Source of the DNA: a virus
Taxonomy: Duplodnaviria; Heunggongvirae; Uroviricota; Caudoviricetes
IMG/VR virus record: IMGVR_UViG_3300008108_000006
Length of the DNA stretch: 64,000 bases
Reading direction: 5' to 3' (one strand)
This document shows, piece after piece, positions 54,717 to 59,473 of the stretch; the first letter of the stretch is position 1; every line of letters begins with the position of its first letter. The notes under the pieces are model-generated. The model was not told where the DNA came from and searched no databases. It saw nothing but the letters and a program-made list of their open reading frames with translations. Position numbers and translations under genes: made by a program.

Positions 54717-55227
54717 AGAGTTTGCACAAGTATTATTAAATATCCCGATGAAACAACGATTACTTGGTTTGGTAATTATTGTTCTTGCTTTTGTTGGAAT
54801 GGAACTCGGATTGTCGTTGATTAAAACAAAAAATCCTGAGACCGAAGAAATGAAAAAAACTATCAGTACATTAAGGATTGAATTACAAATCACAAGAGAG
54901 AGTGTTGTGGAGGCTCAAAGCCAACTATCAAAATTAAACACAAGGATTATTGAAAGTGAGATGGGTTGTACGAATAAAATAATGTCAAGAGAACAAGAGA
55001 TTTGGAAAATGATTGACTCTGTTCAGAGAATTATGAAAACTCATAACAACAAACAACTTCAGACAATTGAAAAAGTTACGACATCATATTATGATCCTAA
55101 TGACACAGGAGTTGTTGTTTCAGCGATGGTATTACCACCAAAAACCAAAAAGGTTATTGTAAAGGATAACACTGAAGCGATTGAAGCGATGGATCTAATT
55201 AAGAAAAAGATTAAAAAATCAAAATAA
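54703..55227 (+). CDS. Membrane-anchored coiled-coil protein
   Basis: ORF track 54655..55227, trimmed to MYMFKEF. An LLGLVIIVLAFVGMELGL TM helix is followed by a helical region. Confidence 0.45.
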   Translation: MYMFKEFAQVLLNIPMKQRLLGLVIIVLAFVGMELGLSLIKTKNPETEEMKKTISTLRIELQITRESVVEAQSQLSKLNTRIIESEMGCTNKIMSREQEIWKMIDSVQRIMKTHNNKQLQTIEKVTTSYYDPNDTGVVVSAMVLPPKTKKVIVKDNTEAIEAMDLIKKKIKKSK

Positions 55228-55734
55228 TCCTCTAAATTCTTTTGGTAGATATAGAAAAATCTCATCATTAGTATAGTCCATATCAACTTCACTTTCTTCA
55301 GGAAGTTCGTTAATTAATTTGAACAAAGTTTCGTACAATTCAGAATTAAAAGGAAACTTCACAAGAATACTATCAAAACCACTTGCAGATCCTCTCAAAC
55401 TTTCTTTATCTACTTCACCATCATACATTTTAATTAATGCGGTTACATAGAATCCAAAACTTTCGTTATCAGGACTAACCTCCTGAGTTTTATAACGTTG
55501 ATCGGGATCATAACTAACTTCCTCTTCTTCATCATTATCAATTAATGATGATGGTATATCTGTTTTACCACCTGATATTAGATATAATTGTTCTTCTTCA
55601 GATAATGCGTCAAAACCTTTTTCATTATATAGATCTAATACTTTATTGTAAGCATCCTCATCATATGCTTCGGTTATTACTTTTTTGATCAGACGGACCA
55701 ACTCAGATTCGGTAAGTTTTATAATTTTTTTCAT
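55219..55734 (-). CDS. Hypothetical acidic protein with the family N-terminus MKKIIKLTESELVRLIKKVITEAYDED
   Basis: ORF track. Confidence 0.55.
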   Translation of the reverse strand: MKKIIKLTESELVRLIKKVITEAYDEDAYNKVLDLYNEKGFDALSEEEQLYLISGGKTDIPSSLIDNDEEEEVSYDPDQRYKTQEVSPDNESFGFYVTALIKMYDGEVDKESLRGSASGFDSILVKFPFNSELYETLFKLINELPEESEVDMDYTNDEIFLYLPKEFRGLF

Positions 55735-55768
55735 AACAATAAATATTCTTTGTAATTAAAAAGTTGAA

Positions 55769-56110
55769 TCAATCTTGATTTAGATATGCCGCACTTACAG
55801 AATATATTCCACTGAGGTTAAGCTTCTTAAAAATAACCTTCTTAAGTGCTTGTAAAAGAGTTTTTTCATCAACAGGAAAAAATTCTTCAACAGTTATCAT
55901 AAATTTTTCATCAAAATACATAACATTCGAACGCCAACCGGAGGAATTTAACGAAACATATATCATTTTATAATCATCTGTTTTATTAATAAAAAACATT
56001 ACCTCTCCCTCAACTGGAACCCACTTGTAATTCTTCTCAGGAAAAGTCATATCAAAGAACCTCTCTAACACTACAGACAATTGGTCAATATTAACAACAA
56101 CTTTTTTCAT
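55769..56110 (-). CDS. Hypothetical protein (paralog group of small ~110-130-aa proteins)
   Basis: ORF track. Confidence 0.5.
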   Translation of the reverse strand: MKKVVVNIDQLSVVLERFFDMTFPEKNYKWVPVEGEVMFFINKTDDYKMIYVSLNSSGWRSNVMYFDEKFMITVEEFFPVDEKTLLQALKKVIFKKLNLSGIYSVSAAYLNQD

Positions 56111-56454
56111 AAATCATAAGGTATATCATCCAACAAGAAATTAAATTCTGTGTGACGTTGGATCGGTGTGATGTTTAATTCGGATTTAATCCATTCTATC
56201 AAGTGTCTTATAATAGTTTCCCATCTAATGGGAATGGAATTTTCTATAGATTTGGTAAATTCGGGATTAAATTTAAACGTTTCGTATTTTGGGTTGTACC
56301 CCATCAATGCCACATTATTTTTGTCCAAAAATAAATTTTGAAATCTTGTTTCATTTTGAGGTTCAACCCAACGAGAACCATTACTTTTATATAATTTGTC
56401 AATATATAATGACAATAGGGTGTATATTTGGTCGTCATTTAATTTAACATTCAT
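56107..56454 (-). CDS. Hypothetical protein (paralog group; MNVKLNDDQIYTLLSLYIDKLYK)
   Basis: ORF track. Confidence 0.5.
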   Translation of the reverse strand: MNVKLNDDQIYTLLSLYIDKLYKSNGSRWVEPQNETRFQNLFLDKNNVALMGYNPKYETFKFNPEFTKSIENSIPIRWETIIRHLIEWIKSELNITPIQRHTEFNFLLDDIPYDL

Positions 56455-56780
56455 ATTCTAATAAATCTTAATATATTTGATGGTAGAACCATACCTACCC
56501 TTAAATCTAACACCTTCTCGACCCATTTTGCTAACGCATCATATAGTCTTTCTCTATCAAAAGGAATAAATTGTTTAAGTATTTCATAAAATGATTCATT
56601 AATATATAGAAAGTTTTTCTTACCTTCATAATGTTCTTCATATTCTACAATACTTTCACCTTTTTGGTTTTCAAAAACATAAAAATTACCTTTTTTATTC
56701 CATGAATAATCCGCATAATTAGATTTAATAAATAAATCAATTAATTTAAATACTTGTTGTTCTAATACCGATACTTTCAT
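56451..56780 (-). CDS. Hypothetical protein (paralog group; MKVSVLEQQVFKLIDLFIKSNY)
   Basis: ORF track. Confidence 0.5.
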   Translation of the reverse strand: MKVSVLEQQVFKLIDLFIKSNYADYSWNKKGNFYVFENQKGESIVEYEEHYEGKKNFLYINESFYEILKQFIPFDRERLYDALAKWVEKVLDLRVGMVLPSNILRFIRI

Positions 56781-57160
56781 TATGATAATTTTGCCGGTGT
56801 TTTATTAATTTTTTCTACCTTTACATTCAACTTTTCTTCAACCCATTTTACTATAAATTCAATAATAAGATCTTCATTTACTGGTATATATCGTTTCAAA
56901 TCATTAACAAACTCATTCGTAATAAATAACCGATCACTAGTAATTCCAAAAGGTCCTTTACCAAGAGTTAAATGATAAAAACTCAAAACAGTATTGTTTT
57001 TTTCAGAATTAGAAAATGAAAATGAATAACCATGTTGATATAATATAGCAGTTTTAGACCCTTGAATAATTTTCTTTTCCCATTCATACTTTTTATATGC
57101 CGCGTCCATAAATTTACAAAACAACGAATATATCTGATCAGATGTCATTTTTAATTCCAT
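56780..57160 (-). CDS. Hypothetical protein (paralog group; MELKMTSDQIYSLFCKFMDAAYKKYEW)
   Basis: ORF track 56780..57184, trimmed to the Met that aligns with the paralogs. Confidence 0.45.
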   Translation of the reverse strand: MELKMTSDQIYSLFCKFMDAAYKKYEWEKKIIQGSKTAILYQHGYSFSFSNSEKNNTVLSFYHLTLGKGPFGITSDRLFITNEFVNDLKRYIPVNEDLIIEFIVKWVEEKLNVKVEKINKTPAKLS

Positions 57161-57169
57161 ATAGATAAA

Positions 57170-57210
57170 TACCACAAAAAACAAAAAACCCCAATCCGAA
57201 GATCAGGGTC
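57170..57210 (-). terminator. Intrinsic terminator on the minus strand: 8-bp stem with UUCG tetraloop (cccugauc-UUCG-gauugggg) plus U-tract
   Basis: Read directly. An identical element recurs at 59440-59473. Confidence 0.55.
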
Positions 57211-58373: not shown

Positions 58374-58391
58374 GATGCAAATATAACATAT

Positions 58392-58418
58392 AAAAAACCC
58401 CAATCAAAGGATCGGGGT
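58392..58418 (-). terminator. Intrinsic terminator on the minus strand (ccccgauc-CUUU-gauugggg plus U-tract)
   Basis: Read directly. Related to the 57170 and 59440 elements. Confidence 0.5.
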
Positions 58419-58440
58419 TATAAAATATTTTAGAAACGTG

Positions 58441-59007
58441 TTATACAAACTTAAGTATTTCACTCATTTTATTAATAATTTCTTTAAGTTTTCCAGGTTC
58501 TCTCTCAAATGTCTCTTTGGCGTCCATCTTACTTTTTTCAATATTAAACGGAGCATCAAGTTTTTTAAACAAAGTCCGTTGCAAAGACACATATTTCTTT
58601 GTAAACTCAGATAATGACATCTCGGGATTTACGGGTCGTTTATTTGTTCTACGAGCCCTCGCCGCATAACCATCTATCATATTTACAGTATCTACTTCAA
58701 CATCCAAAGACTCTTCAACCCACCGTTTAATGTAAGAATAGAAACTCGGTTCATCATATGGAAGTTCATTCATAAATAAACGACTTGCCTCCACGGTTCT
58801 CGTTGGGCGGTAATATCCAACATACGGAGTCATCATCCCGTTATCTATGAATATTACTGAGTCATCACCATCTCCAGCCCAATCAGCATCAGGGAAAAAA
58901 TGATTAATATCATCTTTGAAGTCTTCATACCCTTCTTCTTGTTCATTAACAACACGTTTAACCAATCTAATCAAATCGGATTCCGTCAATCTAATTGTTT
59001 TTTTCAT
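58441..59007 (-). CDS. Hypothetical protein with the family N-terminus MKKTIRLTESDLIRLVKRVVNEQEEGYEDF
   Basis: ORF track. Confidence 0.55.
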   Translation of the reverse strand: MKKTIRLTESDLIRLVKRVVNEQEEGYEDFKDDINHFFPDADWAGDGDDSVIFIDNGMMTPYVGYYRPTRTVEASRLFMNELPYDEPSFYSYIKRWVEESLDVEVDTVNMIDGYAARARRTNKRPVNPEMSLSEFTKKYVSLQRTLFKKLDAPFNIEKSKMDAKETFEREPGKLKEIINKMSEILKFV

Positions 59008-59047
59008 ATTTCGTTTTTAGTTATAAATATTATCAAAAATGAAAGAA

Positions 59048-59431
59048 TTATTCATCACAAAAAGTTGAGATTTCATCAAAATAATAGTCTTCAATCATAT
59101 TACCAAATCTAAGTTCGATAAAATAATACATCTTATCCTGAAGCCACTCACTTCCGTACGCTTTATCCAAAGGATCATAAGAATACATAAATGTGACAAC
59201 ACTAGATTTAATCACCTCTTCCAAATATTTGGAATACTCACCCAAATAATCACAAGGGTTTATCTCATACGATCCCTCCCCAACAATATCTCTAAGATGG
59301 TTCATTATTTCATTATCGTTGGATCGTCTTAAAAGCCATGACCAAGCCATCAGTTCATCTTTGGTGGCTTCTTGTTCATTGATAACCTTTTTTATCAATC
59401 CAATCAATTCATCTTCAGTTAATCTAACTTT
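59048..59431 (-). CDS. Hypothetical protein with the family N-terminus MKVRLTEDELIGLIKKVINEQ
   Basis: ORF track 59048..59458, trimmed to MKVRL. Confidence 0.5.
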   Translation of the reverse strand, partial: KVRLTEDELIGLIKKVINEQEATKDELMAWSWLLRRSNDNEIMNHLRDIVGEGSYEINPCDYLGEYSKYLEEVIKSSVVTFMYSYDPLDKAYGSEWLQDKMYYFIELRFGNMIEDYYFDEISTFCDE

Positions 59432-59439
59432 CATAATGA

Positions 59440-59473
59440 TAAATATACCCAAAAACAAAAAACCCCAATCCGA
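59440..59473 (-). terminator. Intrinsic terminator on the minus strand. Exact repeat of the UUCG-tetraloop element at 57170-57210.
   Basis: The string aaaaacaaaaaaccccaatccgaagatcagggt is identical in both places. Confidence 0.55.

Follow-up and report, generated by a model that had tools for sequence, protein, structure and literature searches.

What function can be assigned to a peptide of 22 residues that heads a series of otherwise unrelated phage proteins? The question is raised by a stretch of 64,000 nucleotides from a tailed virus (Caudoviricetes; IMG/VR record IMGVR_UViG_3300008108_000006), referred to here as the window, in which such a leader occurs at the beginning of several proteins. 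A sequence-only reading of this DNA had proposed that the leader directs the proteins into the procapsid and is then clipped off by a prohead protease. This idea is retained here with a rough probability of 0.55, the leader being regarded as a cleavable capsid-targeting propeptide similar to the capsid-targeting sequences (CTSs) of phage T4. It gains from the restriction of the leader to phages, the selection exerted at the peptide level, the hypervariability of the attached cargoes, the upstream motif common with head genes, and the S77 protease, T4-type portal and Gp23 capsid protein encoded by relatives, whereas the cleavage site, the protease and the number of leader classes first proposed had to be corrected.

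The most clear-cut version of the leader, designated class A, reads MKKxIRLTESDLxRLVKKVIxE(Q) in the window and heads five open reading frames (ORFs), four of them located in a minus-strand block of small ORFs (55219-59458). These are ORF 55219-55734(-) of 171 residues with an acidic cargo, whose leader MKKIIKLTESELVRLIKKVITE occupies positions 55669..55734 (E 1.7e-16), ORF 57231-57551(-) of 106 residues with a basic cargo and the leader MKKVITLTESDLVRLVKKVILE at 57486..57551 (E 7e-17), ORF 58441-59007(-) of 188 residues with the leader MKKTIRLTESDLIRLVKRVVNE at 58942..59007 (E 1.4e-17), and ORF 59048-59434(-) of 128 residues, the leader of which, MKVRLTEDELIGLIKKVINE at 59375..59434 (E 2.7e-14), is shorter by two residues. 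The fifth, ORF 35685-36494 on the plus strand (269 residues), starts with MSKIVRLKESDVVNIVKRILTE at 35685..35750 (E 2.4e-15) and is preceded by a terminator-like hairpin and a promoter motif. All five, previously singled out as the clearest examples, are present where they had been placed and start with the motif, except that the ORF starting at 59048 ends at 59434: the ATG at this position is the real start, because the promoter motif 59439-59446 falls within the longer ORF, and the TTG at 59458 corresponds to an extension by the ORF finder. A profile built from the five leaders and compared to the six-frame translation of the window retrieves exactly these five (E 1e-14 to 1e-17), the next-best match having an E value of 0.28. 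The dozen proteins formerly credited with one leader consist of these five members of a single class and of proteins belonging to several other classes, which are invisible to the class-A profile. The core [LIV][TS]E[SD][DE] occurs 11 times in the six frames of the window, nine times at the N-terminus of an ORF. Scans of ten leader proteins against Pfam and PHROGs return no family spanning the leader; a DUF6576 match is confined to the cargo of two leader-protein matches.

As a consensus, the class-A leader consists of the 22 residues M-K-K-[IV]-[IV]-R-L-T-E-S-D-L-x-R-[IL]-V-K-R-V-I-x-E. Columns 1 to 3 contain M (93%), K (87%) and K (89%), column 6 R (82%), columns 7 to 9 L (100%), T (94%) and E (100%), columns 10 to 12 S (84%), D (85%) and L (98%), column 15 I or L (95%), columns 16 to 18 V (79%), K (86%) and R (76%), columns 19 and 20 V (75%) and I (74%), the latter being occupied by I, V or L in 99% of the cases, and column 22 E (99%). 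The information content, which is 4.2 bits at E22, decreases to 1.6 bits at position 23 (Q in 41%) and to less than 1 bit beyond, where an acidic stretch or a low-complexity linker rich in Pro, Thr and Gln often follows. An AlphaFold2 model of ORF 58441-59007, built from an alignment of 69 sequences, shows residues 1-8 in an extended conformation and a helix from residue 9, with a mean predicted local distance difference test score (pLDDT) of 86-94 over the first 20 residues. The helix is not packed against the remainder of the protein (predicted template-modelling score, pTM, 0.38), and the model is confident for the leader helix and a C-terminal helical bundle only. The helix is amphipathic, with a hydrophobic face made of L12, V13, L15, V16, V19 and I20 and a basic face made of R14, K17 and R18.

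Selection acts on the peptide, since the invariant residues L7, T8, S10, L12 and R14 are encoded by all their synonymous codons (for Leu, Ser and Arg, by members of both codon families), and since third codon positions vary more than the others: among 154 distinct leaders from related loci, identity amounts to 0.78 at codon positions 1 and 2 and to 0.57 at position 3. Similarly, the five window copies aligned as DNA display many synonymous differences, and the DNA upstream of them is unalignable apart from an 8-9 nucleotide motif of the TATATTTAT type.

With respect to known peptide signals, the class-A leader does not have the features of a Sec or Tat signal peptide, namely an h-region with at least 10 hydrophobic residues and a site of the A-x-A type, as it is charged throughout (K2, K3, R6, E9, D11, R14, K17, R18, E22), and the true signal peptides of the same window, e.g., that of 38229-39737, look different. 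The G-G (or G-A, G-S) cleavage site of the double-glycine, Nif11 and NHLP leaders is also absent from the leader, which terminates in E-Q. A ribbon-helix-helix DNA-binding domain was considered and rejected, because only a strand and a first helix are conserved, conservation is lost after residue 23, and no Pfam match to this fold is obtained.

The distribution of the leader points to phages. It is encoded by 219 stretches of IMG/VR viral contigs, from which a sample of 79 viral loci, completed with the window, was taken. The 289 profile matches in this sample start at a Met in all cases except three, and at the first Met of the ORF in 273. They correspond to 186 distinct leader proteins with a median length of 129 residues, and up to 11 copies occur in one stretch of 15 kb (L040). 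The parts following the leader in 182 proteins fall into 138 BLAST clusters, some of which are clear recent duplicates. An exhaustive profile search of 1.84 billion cluster representatives (50% identity clusters) yields 6,393 proteins at E ≤1e-3, in nearly all of which the matching segment covers residues 1-2x. Had the leader been widespread on cytoplasmic proteins of non-phage origin, the proposal would have lost its basis; a degenerate DNA pattern encoding LTESDLxx[LIV]VKRV matches eight times in 185,579 genomes of bacteria and archaea, about five of these matches are real, and some of the real ones sit on short or phage-like contigs. One metagenome contig with a Bacteroidota chromosomal context carries a leader-only orphan ORF of 53 residues (L001:10001-10162) amid BamA, OmpH, CysRS and PolA, which is probably a remnant of phage DNA. 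Searches of the accessible literature for the motif strings of the leader returned nothing relevant.

The cargoes are as diverse as the leader is uniform, and about 95% of 283 leader proteins scanned against Pfam are devoid of any domain. The recognizable domains include LysM (twice), PG_binding_1 (twice) and OmpA (once), all three of which bind peptidoglycan, together with thioredoxin, GNAT and alpha/beta hydrolase folds. The occurrence of cell-wall binders deprived of a secretion signal makes sense if the proteins enter the periplasm from the virion.

Besides class A, the window encodes several other leaders. The ORFs previously described as divergent (19375, 48462, 49112, 2853, 1482, 2191 and 426) exist as written, and the class-A profile misses them. 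Class B, with the consensus MGKF[VI]I[ST]ESE[KR]..., comprises four proteins: MGKFIITESEKNYIKSLYSKFLFEQ (2853..3980, -, 375 residues), MGKFVISESERREILALHESYKKSLLQEQ (19375..20442, +, 355 residues, containing HELRH), MSKFIISESEKIQILSMYMIEQ (48462..49106, -, 214 residues, with TSGY..KTKGTDI repeats) and MSRIKLTESEKNNILSLYEREVKTEFKSVLYEQ (49112..50020, -, 302 residues). Concerning the domains attributed earlier to these cargoes, the HExxH motifs of 19375-20442 and 42534-42926 and the repeats of 48462-49106 were found again, and the peptidoglycan-binding domain of 49112-50020 is a borderline PG_binding_1 match (22.9 bits for a cutoff of 23). Class C, of consensus MK[LF][IV]ISENQYKKLQ... and start form MKLIISENQYKKL, is represented by two tandem minus-strand genes, 1482-2171 and 2191-2856, whose products start with MK[LF][IV]ISENQYKKLQ[VI]LSEGQ... 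and contain each a long hydrophobic stretch that probably spans the membrane. The weakest member, MNINITESDIKHVILES (426..1040, +), has a leader-like start and several hydrophobic stretches seen by eye. Other N-terminal helical motifs occur in the window, i.e., MN[LI]QETIRR[VI]LRE in 63220-63591 and 63588-63911, MKDLIQKVLREE in 5793-6410 and MDLREEISRIKSLMVE in 42534-42926.

The divergent classes have in common with class A a strand-then-helix start, a terminal h-h-x-E-Q or h-x-E-G-Q (h, hydrophobic) and, mostly, the same upstream promoter motif. Further conserved N-termini occur on non-class-A proteins of the same set of loci, such as MKKRIxIxESERxSILxLH...LLKEQ|, M..EEIxxMKYLxGYxRGVVISEQ|, MxNIExYKxRFYNLMESTIGDVKPLISEQ|, MKIIITExQYxxL..IQEQ| and MKTINILQKILMEQ|, and all of these terminate at hydrophobic-hydrophobic-x-E-Q. 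Residues 10-30 of non-class-A proteins contain the latter motif about 10 times as often as other regions (1.8-2.3 per 1,000 residues, vs 0.15-0.25 elsewhere), and the broad start motif h-x-h-[TSN]-E-x-[DEQKN]-h, found 309 times in 1,580 proteins, lies within the first nine residues in 279 instances. The convergence of unrelated leaders on one terminal motif offers the strongest internal hint of a common processing site, and classes B, C and the others are proposed to be alternative versions of the same device.

A candidate for the processing enzyme emerged from relatives of the window phage when the head proteins of T4 and of the Tenacibaculum phage PTm1 were searched with phmmer against all fetched loci; capsid alignments of PTm1 and T4, used as the starting point of a search, reached no leader-bearing contig. 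In locus L050, a Portal_T4 gene (1288-3117, 258.6 bits) is followed by two small ORFs, a Peptidase_S77 gene (4632-5357, 82.7 bits, E 1e-18 to T4 gp21), a gene for an extremely acidic scaffold-like protein of 484 residues (5751-7205), the Gp23 capsid gene (7242-9149, 249 bits), an unannotated ORF of 229 residues (9248-9937) and a class-A leader gene (9995-10597) situated about 850 nucleotides downstream of the capsid gene. In L033, L035 and L079, leader genes have a T4-type portal and a large terminase in their vicinity, and the 321-kb contig IMGVR_UViG_3300031951_000002 harbours both a leader locus (L038) and a head module (L115). Relatives of the L050 capsid protein are encoded by more than 600 IMG/VR contigs, 80 of which, with 73-90% identity, were kept. 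Of the 39 head loci with enough flank, 17 contain leader-type ORFs in the 6 kb that follow the capsid gene, and a family of about 160 residues, MKK..L[ST]ES.L...EQ..ERYMFFSNLEQ, recurs beside the head module. The leader-bearing clade is very abundant, as judged from its S77 protease, of which public data contain more than 6,650 close homologues.

The head proteins of these relatives contain sites that resemble the end of the leader. The N-terminal region of the capsid protein contains ...ENQASxLINE|A(T/S/A) in every listed variant (78 relatives), the sequence that follows being somewhat variable. In the scaffold-like protein, a conserved N-terminal region of about 50 residues ends in ...LVKESL[TSF]EQ|, to be compared with ...LVKRVINEQ| in the leader, and precedes a hypervariable acidic region. 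The S77 protease of some relatives shows FILE|Q or FILE|S near residue 36 (L143:7383-8102, L153:298-1017, L050:4632-5357), which may represent an autoprocessing site of the same form as the leader terminus. Cleavage in T4 obeys an L/I-x-E rule. The T4 head proteins used for comparison are cut in gp23 at ...FLTE|AEIGG, in gp24 at MAKINELLRE|S, in IPII and IPIII at MKTYQEFIAE|A and in IPI at MKTFKEF...ITE|A (PMC5694885). The terminus of the leader thus appears to have the form expected for the S77 family and to match the likely maturation sites of head proteins in the relatives. In this respect, the clipping at L-T-E proposed initially is displaced: L7-T8-E9 is indeed invariant, whereas processing more likely takes place where conservation collapses, at the terminal [VI]-[IL]-x-E22|Q of the leader. 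The cut would probably be made after Glu22 by an S77 prohead protease, and L-T-E (after Glu9) may serve as a second cut. For the window phage itself, this protease would be encoded elsewhere in its own genome, which is probably of jumbo size: a contig of 292 kb that encodes an identical copy of the window protein 1063-1485 is a close relative, since its flank is syntenic with the window but contains indels. The RNA-ligase relatives found in IMG/VR do not exceed 58% identity.

The timing of expression provides another link to the head. A phage motif, (A/T)TATTTA(T/A), occurs 10-25 nucleotides upstream of the ATG, often straight after a terminator hairpin, and in the window it precedes leader genes of all classes. 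It is located on the minus strand at 55739..55746, 12 nucleotides upstream of the ATG, as well as at 57568-57575, 59023-59030, 59439-59446, 3994-4001 and 50036-50043, and on the plus strand at 35673-35680 and 19353-19360. The motif also precedes the GH19 endolysin-like gene 39790-40386 (motif 39769-39776), the cluster that starts at 46535 and encodes small hydrophobic proteins, possibly of the holin type (motif 46554-46561), and the tail-fibre-like genes 20987-22255, 22336-25650 and 25799-26857. A different box, TAnnTTTG, the -7 box of the Bacteroidota sigma-A promoters, is found before 7319-7975, the CCA/poly(A)-polymerase-like gene 12731-13465, the RNA ligase gene 18290-19342, the gene 32491-33465 for a phosphoribosyl pyrophosphate (PRPP)-synthase-like protein and the nicotinate/nicotinamide phosphoribosyltransferase-like gene 33930-35453, the host-type box regions comprising 7290-7318, 18260-18289, 32460-32490 and 33900-33929. 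Across the loci, the phage motif is found upstream of 123/156 class-A leader genes and 470/1,388 other genes (odds ratio 7.3, p 3e-27), and the host box upstream of 3/156 and 175/1,388, respectively (odds ratio 0.14, p 8e-6). When the distinct upstream regions of the head-module loci are considered, all 23 of those belonging to the scaffold gene contain the phage motif, as do 15 of the 21 belonging to the portal gene; the capsid gene lies downstream of the scaffold gene, without a phage motif of its own. Because of this common motif upstream of the scaffold and portal genes, the leader genes are predicted to belong to the late regulon of the head genes. As a side observation, the two mutually exclusive promoter-like motifs yield an early/late map of the window, the host-type one being placed before metabolic and nucleic-acid genes and the phage-type one before leader, lysis and tail-fibre genes. 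The TAnnTTTG box, the signal peptides ending in Q and the sorting domain of the type IX secretion system (T9SS) on 38229-39737 point to a Bacteroidota host.

Assembled into a scenario, these data suggest that the leader genes would form separate late transcription units, each with a terminator, a TATATTTAT promoter and a short 5' untranslated region, co-expressed with the scaffold-capsid operon and the portal gene. The extended segment and the basic amphipathic helix would dock the nascent cargo onto the assembling scaffold core, such that the protein becomes enclosed in the prohead. The S77 prohead protease would then cut after Glu22 ([VI]-[IL]-x-E|Q) and perhaps a second time after Glu9 (L-T-E|S), to leave the freed cargo inside the head, from which it would probably be ejected with the DNA into the Bacteroidota host. 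Scaffold binding, packaging, cleavage at E22 and ejection are steps that we infer.

The closest known counterpart is the CTS of T4 (IPI/IPII/IPIII, Alt and gp24; Mullaney & Black 1996; PMC3012670, PMC5694885); the internal proteins of T4 form a diverse set with only the CTS in common (PMC3012670). Both are short N-terminal peptides borne by unrelated, fast-evolving proteins, begin with M-K and end with hydrophobic-x-Glu, the site of the gp21 (S77) prohead protease in T4, and the leader-bearing relatives possess a T4-type portal, an S77 protease, an acidic scaffold and Gp23, with late expression of the genes. In contrast to T4, where only a handful of cargoes occur, the leader is attached to thousands of cargo families, several parallel leader classes coexist in one genome, and the leader can be repeated internally. 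The leader would represent an analogue of the T4 CTS, not a homologue.

Giant phages of the phiKZ type (SPN3US gp53/gp54, phiKZ gp93) similarly contain many head-internal proteins, among which the SPN3US paralogs gp53 and gp54 display an identical 15-residue N-terminus containing the cleavage motif and a divergent remainder (PMC5694885). In some cargoes a transmembrane segment follows the propeptide, as is the case immediately after the propeptide of an SPN3US ejection protein (PMC5694885). However, the propeptides of this group mostly exceed 100 residues and are not conserved across families, and their cleavage motif, S/A/G-x-E, has a small P3 residue, whereas P3 of the leader is I, L or V as in T4. 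The MuF-domain polymorphic toxins of temperate phages combine a conserved N-terminal head-incorporation domain with a variable C-terminal toxin. They resemble the leader proteins by this fusion of a conserved N-terminal packaging module to a polymorphic cargo; the MuF domain is folded, several hundred residues long and retained, whereas the leader is a peptide of 22 residues. The double-glycine, Nif11 and NHLP leaders of bacteriocins and ribosomally synthesized and post-translationally modified peptides are amphipathic, 15-30 residues long and end with a fixed pair of residues. Like the class-A leader, they are common to many tandem genes with hypervariable downstream parts, but the terminus of the latter is E-Q instead of G-G, its cargoes are whole proteins of up to about 700 residues, its genes are phage late genes, and no C39-peptidase ABC transporter was seen.

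Several observations weigh against a capsid-targeting propeptide. If all classes are counted, about 12% of the window ORFs would be packaged, which is a lot, and some of the cargoes contain transmembrane segments. At 22 residues, with about 18 near-invariant positions, the leader is longer and far more conserved than the T4 CTSs (10-19 residues), its P1' residue is mostly Gln or another polar residue instead of the Ala, Ser or Gly usual in T4, and no similarity to the T4 CTS (MKT[YF][QK]EF...; MKTYQEFIAE) can be aligned beyond M-K and the terminal h-x-E. No head module was seen in the window or in its 10-kb flanks, and the link to S77 rests on relatives; the head-gene loci share few orthologs with the window, at 40-75% identity. 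A tblastn comparison of the leader and three leader proteins with 50,697 GenBank phages returned nothing, i.e., no cultured phage with the leader. Finally, the expectation that the leader would be strictly N-terminal has to be abandoned. Two or three leader copies occur in 40 of the 145 best database matches, in a ranking that is biased towards multi-copy proteins; in the viral loci, the Met is missing from just 3 copies out of 289. Internal copies mostly lack the Met and keep the motif otherwise, e.g., ...ENKKVVRLTESDLNRLVKRIIREQ..., and some copies are C-terminal. In the metagenomic protein P0184, which starts with a class-B leader, three class-A-like copies lie between Cys-rich domains. Such internal copies fit a polyprotein cut by a protease and, equally well, a docking helix that is never cut; a purely N-terminal signal needs none.

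This last point leads to the main rival, judged unlikely on balance, in which the leader is an uncleaved, generic docking or oligomerisation module that attaches late proteins to the outside of the virion as decoration or fibre adaptors, to the membrane or lysis apparatus, or to a host hub. The internal and C-terminal copies, which keep the full motif without the Met, would be readily understood in this way, as would the strongly amphipathic helix with its basic face, free-standing in the AlphaFold2 model; Cys-rich or peptidoglycan-binding cargoes also suit surface or periplasmic roles, and late expression fits any virion or lysis protein. However, a docking module leaves unexplained why unrelated leader classes converge on h-h-x-E-Q and why this terminus agrees with the candidate sites of capsid and scaffold maturation in the S77 phages, and a residue-by-residue conservation of this kind is unusual for membrane-binding helices.

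It is less probable still that no signal exists, and that a single large paralogous family has kept a constrained N-terminal helix while its remainder evolved rapidly under arms-race selection. The tandem arrays of small ORFs, the recent duplicates within some cargo clusters and the hypervariable regions typical of large phages all agree with such a family. Nevertheless, the unrelated folds of the cargoes (LysM, OmpA, PG_binding_1, thioredoxin, GNAT, alpha/beta hydrolase) exclude a single ancestor, the conservation cliff is abrupt instead of graded, and low-complexity linkers often follow the leader.

The ClpP-like gene of the window deserves separate consideration. The gene, ORF 53016-53738(-), is real (PF00574, 192 bits), but its product, formerly regarded as a possible prohead protease, is of the cellular type: it reaches 229 bits on the cellular ClpP model NF011091 and 73.3 bits on NF045542 (ClpP-related head maturation), below the cutoff of 120, and its neighbours are small ORFs instead of head genes. 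As a prohead protease it was rejected, since the L/I-x-E specificity belongs to the S77 family and not to the ClpP fold, and it is most simply a phage-borne ClpP. The relatives encode a double-AAA+ ATPase of the ClpA/B/C type, 683 residues long, within 10 kb of leader genes (L010:13824-15875, -), which, together with the window ClpP, suggests a phage-encoded Clp proteolytic system. Clp unfoldases recognize N-terminal tags, and both the cellular-type ClpP and the proximity of the ATPase could speak for a leader acting as a degron or adaptor tag for this system. Such a role is most improbable, in that ClpP is inconsistently found near leader genes, the destruction of dozens of late proteins has no obvious purpose, internal copies make poor degrons, and neither the terminal E-Q nor the match to the capsid and scaffold sites is explained. 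The weakest proposal, a conservation at the nucleic-acid level as a recombination cassette, a translation-initiation region or a translated RNA element, could invoke the conserved promoter motif and short 5' untranslated region directly upstream and a terminator-promoter-leader layout favourable to cassette shuffling, but it is contradicted by the codon analysis, with all synonymous codons in use and third positions far less conserved, and by upstream DNA unalignable outside the 8-9 nucleotide motif, and hardly deserves credence.

Other features of the window deserve mention. A putative family of paralogs suggested by eye, of about 105-125 residues and with starts like MKVxV.E.Q.Y.L, would comprise 51611-51922, 55769-56110, 56107-56454, 56451-56780 and 56780-57160, all on the minus strand. 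Part of the cargo of 58441-59007 resembles, again by eye, the C-terminal regions of 56451-56780 and 56780-57160; if the resemblance is true, this protein would illustrate the addition of a leader to a domain that already existed. The region 36783-41464(+) encodes several proteins of the secreted type, whose signal peptides end in Q in the Bacteroidota style, including the T9SS Por_Secre_tail protein 38229-39737 and two paralogs, 40441-40899 and 40955-41464, each with its own terminator and late-type motif. An NAD-salvage-like cluster (32491-35453, +) consists of the ribose-phosphate diphosphokinase-like gene 32491-33465, an ORF of 144 residues and the phosphoribosyltransferase-like gene 33930-35453 (534 bits), both enzyme genes being placed behind their own host-type promoter box. 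The protein of 1,221 residues encoded by 14359-18024(+) associates an N-terminal helicase-like region (PHROG 16) with a C-terminal region resembling the DNA methylases found in PTm1 and PTm5, two jumbo phages of Tenacibaculum, and may be a fused enzyme of the restriction-modification type. A gene-poor stretch, 59.8-62.6 kb, holds two tRNA-like elements, 60268-60368(-) and 60049-60160(-), with an intact acceptor stem and T arm and an aberrant or inserted anticodon region, together with a segment rich in G-runs and C-runs, 61858-61930 (GGGGGGTGTAAGGGGG...CCCCCACCCCC), in a genome of 32% GC. The tRNA-like elements score 23.1 and 22.5 bits on the Rfam tRNA model (gathering score 29), ARAGORN calls no tRNA anywhere in the window, and the two elements may represent tRNA mimics, or else tRNAs that are degenerate or bear an intron.

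To return to the capsid-targeting propeptide, its extension to a whole group of phages is advanced with less assurance, at somewhat under even odds: a clade of T4-like giant phages infecting aquatic Bacteroidota would use interchangeable address tags of 15-35 residues ending in h-h-x-E-Q to load dozens of hypervariable proteins per genome for injection, i.e., thousands of families, most without a known fold, including multi-leader polyproteins cut by the protease. The two promoter motifs, TAnnTTTG and TATATTTAT, offer a practical means of telling when genes are expressed in these genomes. Should the leader prove to be a packaging tag, one profile of 22 residues would flag several thousand candidate virion-internal or ejected proteins, almost all without a known domain, from very abundant, uncultured phages of freshwater and marine environments. 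It would provide a catalogue for the search of anti-defence and host-takeover effectors, a role played by IPI in T4, as well as a compact and highly conserved tag for loading foreign proteins into the capsids of Bacteroidota phages. The CTS strategy of T4 would then have been expanded by orders of magnitude in a different lineage of phages and, in the extended reading, would amount to a phage-delivered effector repertoire that can be compared, in both logic and scale, with those of bacterial secretion systems.

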